Positions 2,835 to 17,264 of a stretch of DNA of 30,566 nucleotides are shown here, piece by piece; position 1 is the first letter of the stretch; each line of letters starts with the position of its first letter. Source of the DNA: a virus (taxonomy: Duplodnaviria; Heunggongvirae; Uroviricota; Caudoviricetes); IMG/VR virus record IMGVR_UViG_2609459826_000004, positions 1 to 30,566 of that record. One strand, given 5' to 3'. A program made the position numbers and the translations under genes. Below the pieces are notes generated by a model, which worked only from the letters and a program-made list of their open reading frames with translations, was not told the origin of the DNA and did no database searches.

Positions 2835-5732
2835 TTATGCCTGAGTACGCAGCGCTTCAAGGCGGCGCAGGTCGAAGTCGTTCAGTTCGTCGGTGTAGTC
2901 AGCAGTGATTGGCGCTGGCCATTCACCTGTGTCGAATCCGGTTGCGATATTGCGCATCGCTTTGCGGTACTCGAGCATACCCAGCTCCAGTAGTTCAGCG
3001 GATGCCTCGATGATGGCGATCCAGTGGTAGTTCTCGTCTTTGTTGACGAAAATCCAGAAGAACTGATCCAGCGCTGCGGTTTCGCAGTACATAGCCGCGC
3101 TCAGGTGATAATCACGTTCAATAATTTCCCGGTGTAGCCTGGCGCGCAGGCTTTCCTGCTTAACATTCCACATGCTGATGGTTTTCAGGTCTGCACCTAT
3201 ACGCACGCCATCCAGGTCGATCTCAAGGTCAGGGCGCACACGAACTTCCAAGCCCGTCTCCTCGTCAAAACCAAAGTAGCTCACCTCAACGGCTCGGCTA
3301 GGGGGGGTCAGCAGCATGCCGGCGGTCGGGTGTGCCAGAAGCGCTTTTTGAATATTCAGCGCGGTGCTCAGCTGCTGGCGGGTGACCAGCACTTTTCCTT
3401 CCGGGTTATCGCGCCAGGCATCCAGCAGTTCGTCGGCAAATACGGCATCTGGTTTGACTGCCTTCACGGCCTGGATCATGTCTGCTTTGGTACCGGACAC
3501 TTTCAGTGGTGCCGGTTTCTGTGCTTCCTGAGCCACAAGGTCAGGGTTGATGATTGCCAACTGCTCCAGCAGCGCGTCACGGCTGCCGCTGGTTTTAACC
3601 GGCGGCGGCAGGGTGGCGTTGTACTCTTTAATGCATGCCTTCATTGCCGTCGCCGTCTGCTTCTGGTCACCATCAATACGCTGGAAGTCAGCTGGCAGCG
3701 CCATATAGTTCTGTGCCGTTTCTTCCAGGTTAGCGCCAAGCGGAACCTGCGGCGGCAGGGTGGCGTTGTACTCTTCCAGTAACACCTTGATGTCGTCGGC
3801 AGACAGCAGCGCCGGCAGGCTGGCATTGTGCTCATCGATAAAGGCGCGCAGGGTCGCGGCCGTTGTGAATGCGCCTTCAGGGATCACCGGTTCAACGCTG
3901 AATTCTGCGTCCAGTAGTTCAGGCTGCAACGCCAGCGCATGCACCAAGTTGCCCATGTCCAGCACCGCTGAGCGCTCTTTGACGATGGTTTTCTCTACGT
4001 GGCGCGCATTGAAGTACATCAGCGAAACGCGCGCATCTTTCACCTGGGTTGAGCTGATGCCGTTGGCGGCGTGGTAAACCTCGTTTGGCAGCCCTTCATA
4101 GCGGCCTGGCTCGAAATAAGCGGGATAAACAACAGCTGGTTCGTCAGATTGCGCTTCTGGCTCGGTTTGTGCTGCAACTGGTTCGGTTTGGCTTACAGAA
4201 TCGCTATTTTTGGCGACAGAATCCGTATTCTGGTCTACATCGTCCTTCTGGCTGGTATCTGACTCTTCACCAGACTCCAGACTGCTTTCGCCTGGCTGTA
4301 CTTCATCACCAGCTTGTTTTTCATCACTGACAGTTTCTTGAACCTGCACATTGCTGGTGGTCTCCGTAGCCTTTTTCGTGCCATGAGTTGCTGAGTTCTG
4401 CAGCAAAGCCGTAACGTCGAATATTCCGTTGCCGACATTTTTAACCAGTTCTTGTTCGACTTTCTGCGGTTGTGCTGCCGCTTCCTCTGCGCGGCGGCGT
4501 GCTCCTTCTTCACGCACGCGTTGCAGGTTCTCTTCGTGAGTGCAGAAGGATTTGCGCGGAGACTCCTTACCTTCAGGTTGGGGAATTTCCTGTGCTGCGG
4601 GTTCAGCCTCATGCAACGGCAATAACTCGACCGCGGAATTGAACGCGGCTGTCATGGTCTGGTTAACAAATTCCAGGTGAGCGACAGGAGTTAAATGAAT
4701 ATTTTCCGGTGCGATACGTACCAGGTTAAAAATAGCCGTGCGGTTAACACCCAGAACGCCTGGCTGATTGCGCAGGATGTTGCTCCATGATTTCCATGGT
4801 TCTTCTTTTTTGGTCACGATTTCTTTAGCGCGACGAAGAATGCTGCCCGGGATCTCGAAGTGGTTGAAGTCCATAGGCAGAAGGGCACACGCAATCTCTA
4901 AATCGAGAGTGTCCAGTGTGTGGTGTGCGTCAGGTCCACGGTCAGTGACGTAACCGCCGTCGGCATTAGTGCCGGAATCAGTACGCTGCACACTACTGAT
5001 GCGATTACCGGCGGCCCATTCGCGAACGAGGATACCGCGGTCGATGTGATCTGTAGCGAACCACAATTTCAAAAACTGGATTAAGGTTGCGAGTTCAGGG
5101 ATTTTTCCATCGACAGGGAAGACTTTCTTAACGGCATTCACGACTTTATGAATATCGTGCTCAATGGCTTTTTTGAATGCTTCCACATTCTCAGCTGCCA
5201 GCAGCAGGTTCTGGACGTAGCTGTTATCCACATCCAGCTCGAGTCCCTGAATAATTTTCTTTTGCTCAGAATCGATGTGATAAACGTATTCATCAGAGAT
5301 GAACTGAGCCAAGATACGCTGGCGCAAGGATAGGGTGGCGACAGTGATCAACTGCGGCTGTTCTGCCTGCTGGGATTCGTCTGCATGGCCGGTTTCACCA
5401 TCAACGACATTGTCATCAGCCTGGTGGTTTTCTTCCTGCGCCGCGTTATCAGCTTTCAATTTCACATTCCAGGTGCGCTGGTCTTCGGCCAGTTCGTAAC
5501 GATCACACCAGGTGAAATCAACTTCACCTTCTTCTGGCAGGTCATCAACAACCGGGAAGTCAGTGCGAATTGGTTTGGCGTAGTCCTTGCCGCGGCCGGT
5601 TTCGATGCCAGCATCTTCCAGCGCAACGTCCAGCATCAGGTTGGCGCGAGCCTCGGTTTTAGCAGTGAACCAGACCACTGCATCTTGCTTTCCGGATTTC
5701 TGAGTGGCTTTAACCACATTAAAGAATTCCAT
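2835..5732 (-). CDS. recE: Exodeoxyribonuclease VIII (RecE-like) 5'-3' dsDNA exonuclease
   Basis: 965-aa ORF. N-terminal segment IRTDFPVVDDLPEEGEVDFTWCDRYEL closely matches the E. coli Rac RecE N-terminus as I recall it ([26 protein letters not shown]). Acidic low-complexity linker, C-terminal nuclease-sized domain, GAGGA RBS 6 nt before the ATG. Confidence 0.8.
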   Translation of the reverse strand: MEFFNVVKATQKSGKQDAVVWFTAKTEARANLMLDVALEDAGIETGRGKDYAKPIRTDFPVVDDLPEEGEVDFTWCDRYELAEDQRTWNVKLKADNAAQEENHQADDNVVDGETGHADESQQAEQPQLITVATLSLRQRILAQFISDEYVYHIDSEQKKIIQGLELDVDNSYVQNLLLAAENVEAFKKAIEHDIHKVVNAVKKVFPVDGKIPELATLIQFLKLWFATDHIDRGILVREWAAGNRISSVQRTDSGTNADGGYVTDRGPDAHHTLDTLDLEIACALLPMDFNHFEIPGSILRRAKEIVTKKEEPWKSWSNILRNQPGVLGVNRTAIFNLVRIAPENIHLTPVAHLEFVNQTMTAAFNSAVELLPLHEAEPAAQEIPQPEGKESPRKSFCTHEENLQRVREEGARRRAEEAAAQPQKVEQELVKNVGNGIFDVTALLQNSATHGTKKATETTSNVQVQETVSDEKQAGDEVQPGESSLESGEESDTSQKDDVDQNTDSVAKNSDSVSQTEPVAAQTEPEAQSDEPAVVYPAYFEPGRYEGLPNEVYHAANGISSTQVKDARVSLMYFNARHVEKTIVKERSAVLDMGNLVHALALQPELLDAEFSVEPVIPEGAFTTAATLRAFIDEHNASLPALLSADDIKVLLEEYNATLPPQVPLGANLEETAQNYMALPADFQRIDGDQKQTATAMKACIKEYNATLPPPVKTSGSRDALLEQLAIINPDLVAQEAQKPAPLKVSGTKADMIQAVKAVKPDAVFADELLDAWRDNPEGKVLVTRQQLSTALNIQKALLAHPTAGMLLTPPSRAVEVSYFGFDEETGLEVRVRPDLEIDLDGVRIGADLKTISMWNVKQESLRARLHREIIERDYHLSAAMYCETAALDQFFWIFVNKDENYHWIAIIEASAELLELGMLEYRKAMRNIATGFDTGEWPAPITADYTDELNDFDLRRLEALRTQA
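3597..3775. repeat. Intragenic 32-bp direct repeat (2 copies, 1 mismatch) inside recE
   Basis: aacc[g/t]gcggcggcagggtggcgttgtactctt at 3597-3628 and 3744-3775, 147 bp apart (in frame), with a degenerate third copy near 3811-3833. Encodes repeated E(E/K)YNATLPP peptide units. Confidence 0.6.
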
Positions 5733-5872
5733 GTGAGATCCTCATTTTTGGGTGTTAGAATCCCCGGACCATTGATAGCGCCCATTGGGTTAACTTTGGT
5801 TTTAATGTTGTTTCCGGTGTAACTTTGGTCGGTGAGGCCGGACATGGCGGGCCCACTTCGGTGGGCTTTCGC

Positions 5873-7097: not shown

Positions 7098-7325
7098 CCC
7101 CTTACCCTCTGTCGTTACCCGCTGATGCGGGAGAAATGCTTTGTGGTGCAGCGCCGGGTGCTTATCTTCCGGTTGCCGTCGATGCAGCTGCAATTCACTG
7201 CACTACAAAACATTCCAGTTATTGCCGGGGTATTTATCCGCGCCCGGCGCGCGCTTTCCCGCTATTCCCCAACAGCAAGAAATCGCTTACTCTTTAAGCT
7301 CCCCAACAGTAGAAAGGATATGTTC

Positions 7326-7547
7326 ATGCAAACCATGCGGACCGTGTGCCCTGACTGCGGAAGTGAGATGTTCAACCAGCCCGATGATTTTGACTTTGAG
7401 ACAAATTTCACCGGCGTCAGTTGTGCTGACTGTGGTCGCGAAATCACTAAGGACGATGTTGTCAATCAGGCCACGGACACGGTCAAAAAACAGATCGACG
7501 ACATGCTCAGGAATTCCCTGAAAGGAGCTGGCTGGAAGTTCAAGTAA
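7326..7547 (+). CDS. Small zinc-ribbon protein (two CxxC pairs)
   Basis: MQTMRTVCPDCGSEMF...VSCADCGREIT has two CxxC motifs about 20 residues apart. AAGGA lies 7 nt upstream of the ATG at 7326. Hand-counted third-position GC is about 47/73 in this frame versus about 36/73 for the antisense ORF 7287-7634. Coding strand still ambiguous. Confidence 0.45.
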   Translation: MQTMRTVCPDCGSEMFNQPDDFDFETNFTGVSCADCGREITKDDVVNQATDTVKKQIDDMLRNSLKGAGWKFK

Positions 7548-7825
7548 CTTTAAAAGCTCCCCGGTCTGGGTAAGCACTTCGCTGGCGTCTACATTGAGCA
7601 GTAGTGGCGCCATTTTTTTATCTGACATATACACCCCTCTGATTGTTTACCGTCAGCCCCTCGCAAAGAGCTGCTGGTAAATCGTTTAGCCATAATTGCC
7701 GCTCTTCCTGAGCCCGCCTATGGTCCGACGCATGGTTTACTGTCGCGCCGTTCGACTGACCGAATCTCCACTTCGCCGCTGGCTAACTTCGCTCAGCTGT
7801 CGATGTTTCGTTTCGATGGGGTAAA

Positions 7826-7900
7826 TTTAGCGTTATGCTAAATTATGCGCAATAGCAAAATGCTAAATTGTTGAATGGTTTTATTTAGCGTATTGATTAA
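7826..7900. promoter_or_regulatory. Left operator region (OL-like), 2-3 repressor-binding palindromes
   Basis: TTTAGCGTTATGCTAAA (7826-7842), AATAGCAAAATGCTAAA (7851-7867), weaker TTTAGCGTATTGATTAA (7884-7900). The first is the exact reverse complement of the OR site at 8729-8745. Confidence 0.6.
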
Positions 7901-7937
7901 TAAGCGATTAAAAATTTACAGCGAAGGAATTCGGGAC

Positions 7938-7965
7938 GTAAAAAAGCCCGCGCGATGGCGGGCTT
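7938..7965 (-). terminator. Intrinsic terminator downstream of the repressor gene
   Basis: Hairpin AAGCCCGC / GCGGGCTT (7944-7965, loop GCGATG) followed on the minus strand by a U-run (complement of A7941-A7945), just after the cI-like stop at 7984. Confidence 0.5.
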
Positions 7966-7983
7966 GAGGGGTTTTGCGTGAGG

Positions 7984-8661
7984 TTATGGGATGTTTAGTA
8001 TTTTGGCATCAACCACAACGCCGATGATTTTGCAGTTTCCATTAATTTCTAGCATTGGATATGCGGGGTTAAGGGGCTTTAGGAAGCGTCTGCCGGCATC
8101 GATTACAAGCTTCTTAAAGGTCGCTTCGTTATCGCCTTCTAGCTTCGCGACAACCAGCTTTCCGTTGCGCGGCTCGACTTCAGGATCAACAAGTATCGCT
8201 GCTCCCTCGGGTATGCTCAGTCCAGCCGGGGAGGTCATAGAATCCCCTTTAACGTCCAGCCAGAATGAATCTTCTGAGCAGTCAACAGTCGTGTCATACC
8301 AGCGATCTATCGCTCTTCGGTGATAAGGTTCTACAGCTTCCATCCATTGCCCCGCGCTTACCCAGCTGATTACAGGATAACTTCCTTTTGTCTCGTTCAG
8401 TCCTCGAAATGCAACGTTCGAAGGTTCTTCACTGGCGTGTAAAACATCCATCCAGCCAAAAGGCAGATCAAGCGCAGTTTCAATTTTGCGAGCCATCTTA
8501 TCGCCGATATTGCGATGAGGGTTTGGTCCCAGTAGCTGGCTAAGCGCAGCCGGACTTGTCTCGATGAGCTCGGCAAACTGCGCTTTGGTCATTCCAGACT
8601 CGTGCTGACGCTTCTCGTACAGCGCTTCCAGGTTGGCTTTTCTGATTTCTTTATTTTCCAT
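7984..8661 (-). CDS. cI: cI-like phage repressor (N-terminal HTH, C-terminal LexA/S24 peptidase domain)
   Basis: Start placed at the internal ATG 8659-8661 (MENKEIRK...), since the longer track ORF reads through the operator region. N-terminal HTH-like segment (MTKAQFAELIETSPAALSQL), C-terminal S24 signature with GDSM serine and downstream lysine (VVAKLEGD). Divergent from the Cro-like gene across OR. Confidence 0.85.
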   Translation of the reverse strand: MENKEIRKANLEALYEKRQHESGMTKAQFAELIETSPAALSQLLGPNPHRNIGDKMARKIETALDLPFGWMDVLHASEEPSNVAFRGLNETKGSYPVISWVSAGQWMEAVEPYHRRAIDRWYDTTVDCSEDSFWLDVKGDSMTSPAGLSIPEGAAILVDPEVEPRNGKLVVAKLEGDNEATFKKLVIDAGRRFLKPLNPAYPMLEINGNCKIIGVVVDAKILNIP

Positions 8662-8679
8662 ACCTGCATTGTTACTGCT

Positions 8680-8745
8680 TTTAGCAAAATGATAAATGTG
8701 CAAATTGCTAAATGATGCTTGCGTAGTATTTAGCATAACGCTAAA
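8680..8745. promoter_or_regulatory. Right operator region (OR-like) with divergent PR/PRM
   Basis: TTTAGCAAAATGATAAA (8680-8696) and TTTAGCATAACGCTAAA (8729-8745; perfect TTTAGC/GCTAAA arms). Candidate PR -35 TTGCGT (8718-8723) and -10 TAAACT (8742-8747) overlap the second site. 116-bp gap between the cI start and the cro start. Confidence 0.6.
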
Positions 8746-8777
8746 CTCCAAATCAAACGACTCACCCGGAGACACCA

Positions 8778-9011
8778 ATGAGCACTGAACTACACCGCTG
8801 GCGCAAGGCCGCCACTACCGACGAATGGGCGCAGCTCGCAAAGTTGGCTAACACGACGCCAGGTTACCTGGACCAGATCGCCTACGGAAATCGCCGGGCA
8901 TCTCCAGAAATGGCATCTGCTATCGAGAAAGGCACGAAGAATTTTCACCGCCAGGCTCCGGTCCTAAAAGAAAGCCTGGTATTCGCATCGCCGCGTGATA
9001 CTGCGGCCTAA
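8778..9011 (+). CDS. cro: Cro-like small HTH regulator
   Basis: 77-aa ORF divergent from the repressor; GGAG RBS 6 nt upstream. HTH-like segment DEWAQLAKLANTTPGYLDQIAYGNRRAS. Confidence 0.65.
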   Translation: MSTELHRWRKAATTDEWAQLAKLANTTPGYLDQIAYGNRRASPEMASAIEKGTKNFHRQAPVLKESLVFASPRDTAA

Positions 9012-9028
9012 CCACGAAAGGGAAAGCA

Positions 9029-9598
9029 ATGCATTCACTTACGTATCACGAGAATAACGGATTCAATGCGAATCCGATGATTTCGATAAATCAAAGCGTT
9101 CCGCGCAATAACAGTAAGCTGACCAGGATCCGCGAAGCTGTTCGCGCCTGGCAGAAGGCAACGCCCGGACAGGCTCAGGTTCACATTTCGCAACTGGTAG
9201 CAAAGGAGTGGCTGGCGCGCGGCGGTCGTGGATTGCTGCTGGCCGGTTCTGAGCACAACACCAAGCAGAACTTCTTCCGGATGATTAAAGACCCGGGACC
9301 TAAGAACGATAAAGGCCTGGTGCTACTGATCCCCGTCATTGTTGATGTGATGGCTCGGGATAACGAGCAGGTGGCCCGTCAGTTCGGTCTGGTGAAAGGC
9401 AAGACGAAAGAGGAGTTGATTGCGGAGGCCATGAAAGAGTGCACTGAAGCGCATCAGGCGAAGTTACTTGGTCAGCCGATACAACGCCTTGAGAAAGAGG
9501 TGAGAGAAGCTGCTGAAGCACTGCTGCGCTTCCTGCCAACTGAATCAATCGCTGCGGTGGTGACAAGTCTGGCCGCCATGGCGCCGGGAGTTATGTGA
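9029..9598 (+). CDS. Hypothetical protein in the cII position (possibly CII/YdaT-like regulator)
   Basis: 189-aa ORF immediately after cro. Function inferred from position only. Confidence 0.45.
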   Translation: MHSLTYHENNGFNANPMISINQSVPRNNSKLTRIREAVRAWQKATPGQAQVHISQLVAKEWLARGGRGLLLAGSEHNTKQNFFRMIKDPGPKNDKGLVLLIPVIVDVMARDNEQVARQFGLVKGKTKEELIAEAMKECTEAHQAKLLGQPIQRLEKEVREAAEALLRFLPTESIAAVVTSLAAMAPGVM

Positions 9599-9839
9599 TG
9601 GGAAGTATCAAAAAGGCGAAAGCCCCTCTGCGCGAACAGAAAGGGCTCTCAGGTGTAAAAGCGGATAGCAATTACGAGGTCAATTCTAATGGCAAAGCGT
9701 AAGAAGTACCAGGAAAAAGAGGAGCGCCGCCACCCGGACTCTCCTGATGGGATTGTGGTTGCAGCATCAAAGAACAGGTCATTTGCCGAACGTTTCGTCG
9801 GCGTGGCTCGTCTCGCACTAATCGCAGCAGGAGTGAAGC

Positions 9840-11000
9840 ATGGGCGTCGTTAGGTTAGCAGATCGGAACGGAGGCGCGTATTCCTCCAGGAGCTCTCGCG
9901 TGGATAACAGGAAGCAGGGCCACTTTGCCTTGTTCAGAAGCGCTCTCACGGCACCGTGGTCAAAGGATACGGCTAAGTTAGCCCTGTGGGTGCGCCTGCT
10001 TGGTGAAGCTCGCTTTAAGCCGGGCAGCGTTGAATTTGCTGGCCGAGAATGGATGCTTGGAGCGGGGCAGTTAGTCACCACCACCGCCATCATGGCAAGA
10101 AAACTTCGCGATCAGGACGGCAATGAGAAGAGTGCAAAAGCCGTTGAGCGAATGCTGAATTTCTTCTGCCGGGAAGGGATGTTAAGCACCAAAGGAACAC
10201 CATTCGGAACCGTGATTACCATCACAAATTACTGTGAATATCAGGGCATTTCAGGCGTCGAAGGTAATGACGAACCACCCGTCGAGCCTAAACCCAGTGC
10301 TGGCGCGGTCTTGAAGCTTGTGCACGTCGAGGGGGGTGACGAACCACCCGTCGAACAGAACAAGAATGGAGTTAACAAGAATAATAAACCCCCCCTTACC
10401 CCCCAGGGGGAAAAATCGCTCGCTCAGGATGTGATGGATTACTTCAACGAGCTGACAGGAAGCCGCTGCGCTGCCTTAGCGCCTTTCGAAAAAGCGCTTA
10501 CCACCGTGAAGAGCAAAGACCAGTGCTACACCGCTGAAGAGCTGAAACTCGTTATCCGCTGGGCCCATGTGAACTGGGGTCACAGCTTCAAGCCAGAGAA
10601 CCTGTGCCGTATGACCCGCTTTGATGGATACCTGTCAGACGCCCTGATATGGGCAGATGGTCATGGCAGCAACCCGAAAGCCTGTCTGCACGAAGAGATC
10701 ATCAAGCTCTGGAATGAAAAATTCCCTTCGAAGGCCGTTTCGCTGCATGAGTGGAACCGCCGCCGTCCGGCCTATCGAGACCTGGAAGCTGTGTGGAACG
10801 GCAAAACCACCCAGGGCAACTGGCGAGAACTGAAGCACATGGGAATGGCCTTCGAGCTGATTAGCAAGTCTTCCCTGTTCGCCACCAGAGGCGATCAGCC
10901 ATGGCTGACACTCGACTGGATCCTGAATCCGAAGAACTGGGGATCTGTCTACGAGCAGGCCATCAACGAGCACCGTGAGCGCAAGGGAGTCAAAGCATGA
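9840..11000 (+). CDS. Replication initiation / replisome-organizer protein (lambda O-like role)
   Basis: 386-aa ORF with AGGAG RBS 9 nt upstream, followed with a 4-nt overlap by the DnaB-like helicase. Contains in-frame iteron-like repeats plus an AT-rich stretch (origin-within-gene arrangement); C-terminal region resembles the conserved phage replication-protein C-terminus. Confidence 0.7.
   Translation: MGVVRLADRNGGAYSSRSSRVDNRKQGHFALFRSALTAPWSKDTAKLALWVRLLGEARFKPGSVEFAGREWMLGAGQLVTTTAIMARKLRDQDGNEKSAKAVERMLNFFCREGMLSTKGTPFGTVITITNYCEYQGISGVEGNDEPPVEPKPSAGAVLKLVHVEGGDEPPVEQNKNGVNKNNKPPLTPQGEKSLAQDVMDYFNELTGSRCAALAPFEKALTTVKSKDQCYTAEELKLVIRWAHVNWGHSFKPENLCRMTRFDGYLSDALIWADGHGSNPKACLHEEIIKLWNEKFPSKAVSLHEWNRRRPAYRDLEAVWNGKTTQGNWRELKHMGMAFELISKSSLFATRGDQPWLTLDWILNPKNWGSVYEQAINEHRERKGVKA
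10256..10354. repeat. Iteron-like direct repeats (candidate replication origin) inside the initiator gene
   Basis: 30-bp units cgtcgaNNNNNNtgacgaaccacccgtcga at 10256-10285 and 10325-10354, with an 18-bp perfect core and 69-bp period. Followed by the AT-rich run 10355-10390. Confidence 0.5.
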
Positions 11001-17161: not shown

Positions 17162-17190
17162 GCCTCGCCATCGTGCGGGGCTTTTTATTT
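17162..17190 (+). terminator. Intrinsic terminator downstream of Q (tR'-like)
   Basis: Hairpin GCCTCGC / GCGGGGC (7 bp, one G-U pair, loop CATCGT) followed by TTTTTATTT. Confidence 0.55.
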
Positions 17191-17264
17191 GCCTGTAGCT
17201 CAGAGGAAAGAGCAACCGCCTTCTAAGCGGTTGGTCGCTGGTTCGAATCCAGCCAGGCGAGCCA
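17189..17264 (+). tRNA. tRNA-Arg (anticodon UCU)
   Basis: Hand-folded cloverleaf: acceptor TTGCCTG/CAGGCGA, D-arm GCTC/GAGC, anticodon stem ACCGC/GCGGT with loop CTTCTAA (anticodon TCT), 5-nt variable loop, T-arm GCTGG-TTCGAAT-CCAGC, discriminator G and encoded CCA. Closely parallels E. coli argU architecture. Confidence 0.8.

Follow-up and report, generated by a model that had tools for sequence, protein, structure and literature searches.

We analysed a 30,566-bp stretch of viral DNA (positions 1 to 30,566 of IMG/VR record IMGVR_UViG_2609459826_000004, Caudoviricetes; hereafter the window), in which the gene for a cI-type repressor, divergent from the gene for a Cro homologue, is flanked by 17-bp palindromes of the form TTTAGC-N5-GCTAAA. 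A preliminary description of this DNA had proposed that these palindromes are the left and right operators (OL and OR) of the repressor. The genes and sites concerned are listed below, with mismatches counted against the palindrome; PR and PL denote the candidate rightward and leftward early promoters and PRM the candidate maintenance promoter of cI.

7826-7842: OL1, TTTAGCGTTATGCTAAA, half-sites perfectly palindromic; the site nearest to the leftward early transcript
7851-7867: OL2, AATAGCAAAATGCTAAA (TTTAGCATTTTGCTATT on the minus strand), 2 mismatches; centre 25 bp from the OL1 centre
7884-7900: OL3, TTTAGCGTATTGATTAA, 2 mismatches; centre 33 bp from the OL2 centre
7944-7965, minus strand: intrinsic terminator of cI, AAGCCCGCCATCGCGCGGGCTT followed by TTTTTT; kept in Klebsiella phage KO-TP1
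7984-8661, minus strand: cI-type repressor, 225 amino acids, with an N-terminal helix-turn-helix (HTH), an S24 domain, an Ala103-Gly104 cleavage site, Ser141 and Lys183/184
8680-8696: OR3, TTTAGCAAAATGATAAA, 1 mismatch; the cI-distal half (8691-8696) reads TTTATC on the minus strand and lies at the -35 position of PRM
8696-8712: OR2, ATGTGCAAATTGCTAAA, 3 mismatches; at -43 from the cI ATG, centre 33 bp from that of OR1
8729-8745: OR1, TTTAGCATAACGCTAAA, within the spacer and -10 of PR
8778-9011, plus strand: Cro homologue, a 77-amino-acid HTH protein homologous to H-19B Cro, with an almost invariant helix GYLDQIAYG

The OL and OR labels fit this layout: cI is divergent from the Cro homologue, and the cI terminator lies between cI and the left cluster. 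As originally described, OL1 is the exact reverse complement of OR1, with the sequences and coordinates then given, and the additional sites reported at that time (OR3 with its single mismatch, OL2 and OL3 with two each) were recovered as well. The five sites of the earlier list are correct, but the list is not the complete set, because OR2 had been overlooked. OR2 and OR3 have one base in common and a centre-to-centre distance of 16 bp.

The product of the cI gene is, by its sequence, a two-domain repressor of the lambda-cI/LexA type, for which autocleavage is predicted. Peptidase_S24 scored 102.2 bits (cut-off 23.3) and Pfam HTH_3 scored 22.9 bits, marginally below its cut-off of 23, while a phmmer alignment of residues 10-218 to intact lambda cI (3bdn, E = 5e-32) covers the HTH. 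The catalytic dyad, in GDSM (Ser141) and FKKL (Lys183/184), aligns with GNSM and FKKL of lambda cI; the cleavage site, in VSAGQW, aligns with lambda VQAGMF, Gly104 being invariant in a four-sequence alignment. Among the phrog families, residues 1-83 match phrog_5736 and phrog_12107, and phrog_4 ('transcriptional repressor') matches cI.

We scored TTTAGC-N5-GCTAAA on both strands of the whole window. At two or fewer mismatches there are five sites and none besides, against an expectation of 0.96, and in 100 dinucleotide-preserving shuffles the largest count was four (0/100 reach five). All five sites fall within ~170 bp of non-coding DNA, in two stretches flanking cI. At three mismatches the same scan returns 26 matches against 10.9 expected, and a motif match alone is uninformative at that level. 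OR2 was therefore accepted as a site because, in relatives, it keeps one position and hardly varies, not for its match to the motif.

We then compared 95 loci encoding this DNA-binding domain (15 species genomes and 80 IMG/VR loci), in which the sites upstream of cI were found as 6-N5-6 inverted repeats with no motif presupposed. Counted from the A of the cI ATG, the following positions are occupied in every Enterobacterales locus.

-84 to -68: OR1
-51 to -35: OR2
-35 to -19: OR3

On the other side of cI, OL2 and OL3 lie 25 and 58 bp from OL1, so that the OL spacings (25 and 33 bp) are as fixed as the OR offsets. The fixed offsets span loci of Escherichia, Klebsiella, Enterobacter, Citrobacter, Atlantibacter, Phytobacter, Biostraticola and Pantoea. 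Across 45 non-redundant OR regions of the TTTAGC class, column entropy averages 0.06 bits at half-site positions, rising to 0.28 for the five central bases and to 0.84 for all other non-coding DNA. Among 13 divergent representatives (median 73% identity over the first 75 residues of the repressor), 5 of 35 half-site columns vary, as against 42 of 50 other non-coding columns (Fisher p = 9e-11). KO-TP1, whose immunity module is 91% identical to that of the window, has OL substitutions only in the central spacers or between sites, and none in a half-site.

The individual sites follow the same pattern. Nearly every related locus has TTTAGC-N5-GCTAAA at the position that corresponds to OL1. OL3, at offset -58 from OL1, occurs in the majority of close relatives; in distant ones it is weaker or has diverged. 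In most close relatives the centre of OL1 is ATCAC, not ATAAC; since the central five bases differ there, the 17/17 identity between OL1 and OR1 is a lineage-specific feature and no requirement of the system. Where half-sites of OR2, OR3 and OL2 depart from the palindrome, the departures too are conserved. OR3 is TTTATC-N5-GCTAAA throughout the TTTAGC class, save for a one-base change to GCTATA in a few loci (L006, L079 and L080); the outer half of OR2 is nearly always GCA(C/T)AT or GCGCAT; and the outer half of OL2 is always GCTATT, readily explained by its final TT, which doubles as the TT of the conserved TTG in the likely PL -35 element. A search of 5.8 billion proteins with the 90-amino-acid DNA-binding domain returned truncated fragments only.

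The same comparison provides candidates for the three promoters.

8719-8724, plus strand: candidate PR -35, TTGCGT; TTG kept in at least 90% of the 45 OR regions
8742-8747, plus strand: candidate PR -10, TAAACT, overlapping the right half of OR1; predicted start near 8754-8755
7847-7852, minus strand: candidate PL -35, TTGCGC, with a 2-bp overlap with OL2; TTG kept, the other three bases variable
7824-7829, minus strand: candidate PL -10, TAAATT, overlapping the promoter-proximal half of OL1 and kept in relatives; predicted start near 7817
8668-8673, minus strand: candidate PRM -10, AACAAT, 6 nt upstream of the cI ATG

PR and PL are likely TTGCGT-17-TAAACT and TTGCGC-17-TAAATT, respectively, as judged from conservation. 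In both, the spacer is 17 bp and the O1 site fills the spacer together with the first four bases of the -10 element. TAAACT is found in 13 of the 13 divergent representatives, and phage H-19B has TAAAGT. The earlier proposal of PR elements overlapping 8729-8745 thus holds at the level of the consensus, with TAAACT over the right half-site and TTG 17 bp upstream. Two alternative -10 elements, TAGTAT (8724-8729) and CATAAT on the PL side, were rejected: neither has a TTG-type -35 16-18 bp upstream, the nearest TTG being at 12 bp.

For PRM, the pattern nAnnAT stands exactly 6 nt before the cI ATG in all 15 representatives, H-19B included. The remaining bases are variable, the hexamer being AACAAT in the window, GAAAAT in H-19B and GAGAAT in Pantoea. 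There is no usable Shine-Dalgarno spacing ahead of the cI ATG. These features suggest that the cI transcript from PRM is leaderless. A leaderless PRM transcript is established for lambda. Such a start would place the outer half of OR3 at -35 to -30 and the centre of OR2 at -43 (-42 in lambda), a placement that suggests repression from OR3 and activation from OR2.

The closest described system is that of H-19B, a Shiga toxin 1 (Stx1) phage with homologous cI and Cro, whose operator region has been studied by experiment. PMC1151598, citing Neely & Friedman 1998, treats the H-19B operators as repressor-binding sequences, and according to PMC8065619, citing Shi & Friedman 2001, the OR of this phage holds four sites. 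The H-19B sites compared with those of the window are as follows.

H-19B OR1: TTTACCATTTTGATAAA, TTTACC...GATAAA
H-19B OR2: TTTATCATATTGCGTAT, the counterpart at the same offset as OR2 of the window
H-19B OR3: TTTATCCATTTGCTAAA
H-19B OL2: TTTATCATTTTGCTATT
H-19B OL1: TTTATCATTCCGATAAA, TTTATC...GATAAA

Both systems have 17-bp 6-N5-6 operators at offsets -84, -51 and -35, with 19 nt between OR3 and the ATG; both have OL1 and OL2 25 bp apart with the overlap of GCTATT and TTG, the OR3 form TTTATC-N5-GCTAAA, a cI protein that starts MENK(E/D)IRK, and a 77-amino-acid Cro with the GYLDQIAYG helix. H-19B also has a candidate fourth OR site, TTTATCACACAGAACAA, at -102. The two systems differ in the consensus half-site (TTTATC/GATAAA in H-19B, TTTAGC/GCTAAA here) and in the repressor. 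The cI DNA-binding domains (residues 1-75) are 51% identical and the whole proteins 34%; the recognition helix (VSPSQLTQV in H-19B, TSPAALSQL here) differs at 5 of 9 positions; and the C-terminal domain of the window repressor resembles those of P22 c2 and lambda cI, not that of H-19B. H-19B further has an N gene and, in the interval from cI to OL, additional genes amounting to ~1.7 kb, neither of which is present here.

Lambda, like the window, has 17-bp partially symmetric operators, three per side, and divergent cI and cro; its O1 sites lie over the early promoters, as those of the window lie over the candidate ones. The window further resembles it in the repressor family of both domains, the Ala-Gly cleavage site and the Ser/Lys dyad, in an OR2 centred near -42/-43 of the maintenance promoter, and in a cI mRNA that is probably leaderless. 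The operator sequence, however, is unrelated to that of lambda (TATCACCGCCAGAGGTA), and the centres of neighbouring sites are 33 and 16 bp apart in OR and 25 and 33 bp apart in OL, as compared with 24 and 23 bp in lambda. OR2 and OR3 abut here, and the cooperative pairings may differ. In addition, the window lacks rexAB in the interval from cI to OL, and no N-like gene was seen downstream of PL. To judge from sequence records, the Klebsiella phages KO-TP1 and Chronis (vB_Kpn_Chronis) and prophages of E. coli, Enterobacter and Citrobacter share with the window the recognition helix, the six operators and their positions; Chronis has the helix TSPAALSQL and the same six sites. Identity over the cI DNA-binding domain is 93% for KO-TP1, 73% for Chronis and 51% for many Stx phages, as for H-19B. 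The literature found on the operators of KO-TP1, Chronis or mEp506 consists of genome announcements and catalogues only.

Taken together, near-invariant half-sites, fixed offsets, the layout shared with H-19B and the cI/Cro context support the original interpretation of the palindromes. We consider it about 87% probable that they are the cI/Cro operators of a lambda-like prophage immunity switch; from these sequence features we infer that the repressor binds there, where the promoters lie, that the cI mRNA has no leader, that OR2 serves in activation and how the sites rank in affinity. In such a switch, dimers of the cI-type repressor, and later Cro, would bind the three 17-bp operators on each side. 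Repressor on OR1 and OL1 would occupy the spacer and -10 of PR and PL; with the O1 sites lying over both early promoters, it would block RNA polymerase there and keep the prophage silent. The repressor itself would be expressed from the weak PRM (AACAAT) as a leaderless mRNA. OR2, centred at -43, appears placed for activation of PRM as in lambda, and OR3, which covers the PRM -35 and spacer, would shut PRM off at high repressor levels. Induction would proceed by RecA-stimulated self-cleavage, in which the Ser141/Lys dyad cuts the repressor at Ala103-Gly104 and so inactivates it. The system is a conventional lambdoid cI/Cro operator system, with a half-site that is a one-base variant of that of H-19B and with no new mechanism.

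Several observations weigh against this interpretation. A consensus promoter scan of 7600-8850 found no sigma-70-like site at threshold, and the candidate PR and PL hexamers match 7 of 12 consensus positions. Since the scan was empty, the promoters were assigned by conservation. OR2 agrees with the motif at 9 of the 12 specified positions, as do chance matches elsewhere in the window, and its spacing from OR3 (16 bp, against 23 bp in lambda) means that simultaneous occupancy and a lambda-style logic are not assured. Finally, there is no counterpart of the fourth OR site of H-19B, as nothing at three or fewer mismatches lies between OR1 and cro.

The preliminary description had gone further and stated that the motif defines the immunity specificity of the prophage. 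Of the claims made there, this is the least secure: the motif is one base per half-site away from that of H-19B, and no clear specificity-determining residue emerged. Members of the H-19B immunity group would be expected to have the same operator consensus and a near-identical DNA-binding domain, and the window has neither. The prophage is probably heteroimmune to H-19B. Alternatively, the operators may be genuine while the repressor tolerates G or T at position 5 of the half-site, in which case the prophage would be homoimmune or partly cross-immune with H-19B-type Stx phages; we regard this as possible, if on the unlikely side. The TTTAGC and TTTATC consensus sequences do differ at just one base per half-site, and each system contains half-sites of the other type (GATAAA in OR3 here, GCTAAA in OR3 and OL2 of H-19B). 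However, the base of the other class is confined to sites that are expected to be weak, suggesting that position 5 is discriminated. In the TTTAGC class, OR1 and OL1 are of the G type in both halves in nearly every locus, with the exception of the Pantoea locus L013. OR1 and OL1 of the TTTATC class are without G at position 5; two Pantoea loci are T/T, and OR1 of H-19B has C in one half.

The repressors also provide evidence on both sides. The canonical base-contacting residues S36, Q42, R50 and N51 are invariant in both classes, as would suit a repressor that tolerates either base, but the DNA-binding domains are only 51% identical. Positions 32 and 35 alone track the operator class, on no more than two independent TTTATC lineages. 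Two Pantoea prophages with the helix NPAQLSQV have TTTATC/GATAAA operators. Other Pantoea repressors have an H-19B-like helix, SASQFSQL, beside TTTAGC operators, one of them with a hybrid OR1, and these favour cross-immunity. The OR1 sequences of Pantoea loci form a series of TTTAGC type, hybrid type (TTTAGCTTTATGATAAA in L013, P. rodasii) and TTTATC type (L014, P. latae; L015, Ca. P. alvi), and it is possible that this series represents natural intermediates between the operator classes. As a proxy for heteroimmunity we considered co-residence in E. coli genomes, of which 27 carry the type described here and 216 the H-19B type (60 of these 216 among the matches listed).

A more speculative proposal, which we think unlikely, is that TTTAGC and TTTATC represent a very recent natural split of one specificity on position 5, with determinants outside the canonical recognition positions (at 32 and 35). 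Under such a recent split, the conserved hybrid OR3 would be read by either repressor, though sub-optimally. If this were true, repressors of these common non-toxigenic prophages could partially cross-repress incoming H-19B-type Stx1 phages, or be titrated by them, with a possible effect on Stx-phage lysogeny and induction in E. coli strains that have both. The window and H-19B form a matched pair, one base per half-site apart, in which the origin of new specificities and the interaction of non-toxigenic prophages with Stx phages can be studied. The sites described here also provide a definition, at the sequence level, of one lambdoid immunity group in Escherichia, Klebsiella, Enterobacter, Citrobacter and Pantoea, making immunity typing feasible from sequence alone.

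It is very improbable that the palindromes are read mainly by Cro or another small regulator, or that they are AT-rich promoter elements with no dedicated protein. The putative recognition helix of Cro is almost invariant, and Cro alone could drive conservation of the sites; moreover, the sites overlap promoter elements that are themselves under selection. The conservation, however, is dyad-symmetric and includes half-sites off the promoter hexamers, namely both halves of OL3 and the left half of OR1, and the repressor belongs to the lambda cI family of dimeric HTH proteins. To our knowledge, cI and Cro act on the same operators in every characterised lambdoid phage (lambda, 434 and P22), and this too speaks for repressor binding. 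The H-19B operators are, in addition, cited as binding sites of the cI homologue in PMC1151598. Random matches could be expected in AT-rich phage intergenic DNA, where the motif is common at three mismatches, but an origin by chance is effectively refuted by the shuffles, by the position of all five matches around cI and by the fixed-offset conservation in dozens of diverged loci.

These operators bear on the gene model of the repressor. In the annotation by PGAP (as 'LexA family protein') and in KO-TP1 gp27, the repressor starts 25 codons upstream, giving 250 amino acids. This upstream ATG lies inside the centre of OR1 (GTTATGCTAAA), and the 250-amino-acid model puts OR2 and OR3 within coding sequence; the models concerned are the 8661-8736 (minus strand) extension in the window, 9385-10137 in locus L099 and 4210-4962 in locus L001. 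Chronis gp42, at 264 amino acids, starts even further upstream. On the other hand, an in-frame stop is found 0-5 codons upstream of the MENK start in Biostraticola, in two Pantoea loci and in H-19B, and the curated H-19B cI begins MENKDIRK. Because of these stops in distant relatives and the start of H-19B cI, we take the 225-amino-acid model, with its start at 8661, to be correct. This start corrects an error that recurs in annotations, namely an ATG inside OR1 taken as the beginning of the repressor.

The interval between cI and OL varies in length. OL1 is usually ~819 nt after the cI ATG, as compared with 1,628 nt in L047, 1,503 nt in L077 and 2,422 nt in the H-19B locus (L003). The insertions amount to ~0.7-0.8 kb in L047 and L077 and ~1.7 kb in H-19B, in the slot that holds rexAB in lambda, and this interval seems to be a preferred place for cargo genes.

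Downstream of PL, no N-like (arginine-rich) antiterminator gene is evident in 7287-7817 on the minus strand. Of the predicted PL leader, the initial ~45 nt (7775-7817) are kept in KO-TP1 and many relatives, and the 188-nt leader (7630-7817, minus strand) folds no better than shuffled sequences (z = -1.2). Genes to the left and right of the immunity region include the following.

2835-5732, minus strand: a RecE-like protein of 965 amino acids (phrog_607/412, exonuclease VIII family), acidic and of low complexity over a long central region
7125-7547, plus strand: an open reading frame (ORF) just left of OL with a CPDCG...CADCG zinc ribbon, opposed to PL transcription
7287-7634, minus strand: an ORF of 113-115 amino acids with no informative match, overlapped by the zinc-ribbon ORF
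9029-9598, plus strand: the gene at the cII position, 189 amino acids, matching phrog_163 ('CII-like transcriptional activator') and, weakly, YdaT

The gene at the cII position is followed by genes for an O-like initiator and a DnaB-type helicase. The equivalent of the zinc-ribbon ORF in a near-identical E. coli prophage is named 'ECs_2282 family putative zinc-binding protein' by PGAP, and the ORF may be a moron expressed during lysogeny. In other prophages with the same immunity module (L099), lambda exo/bet/gam take the RecE slot, a swap that shows mosaic exchange of the surroundings while the immunity cassette stays constant. Positions 5774-5871 (plus strand) match the Rfam family isrB, an Hfq-binding small RNA, with 38.2 bits against a gathering score of 35 bits; the match falls between the gene for the RecE-like exonuclease and the following ORF. 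A tRNA-Arg gene (anticodon TCT) lies within the prophage at 17189-17264 (plus strand).

A near-identical immunity module is found in 27 of 5,426 complete E. coli genomes. E. coli NCTC9040 (NZ_LR134247.1) carries two copies of the immunity module on one chromosome. In E. coli MB20 (NZ_CP073976.1) the match to 7600-9100 consists of two pieces, and the annotation places an HNH endonuclease gene inside it.

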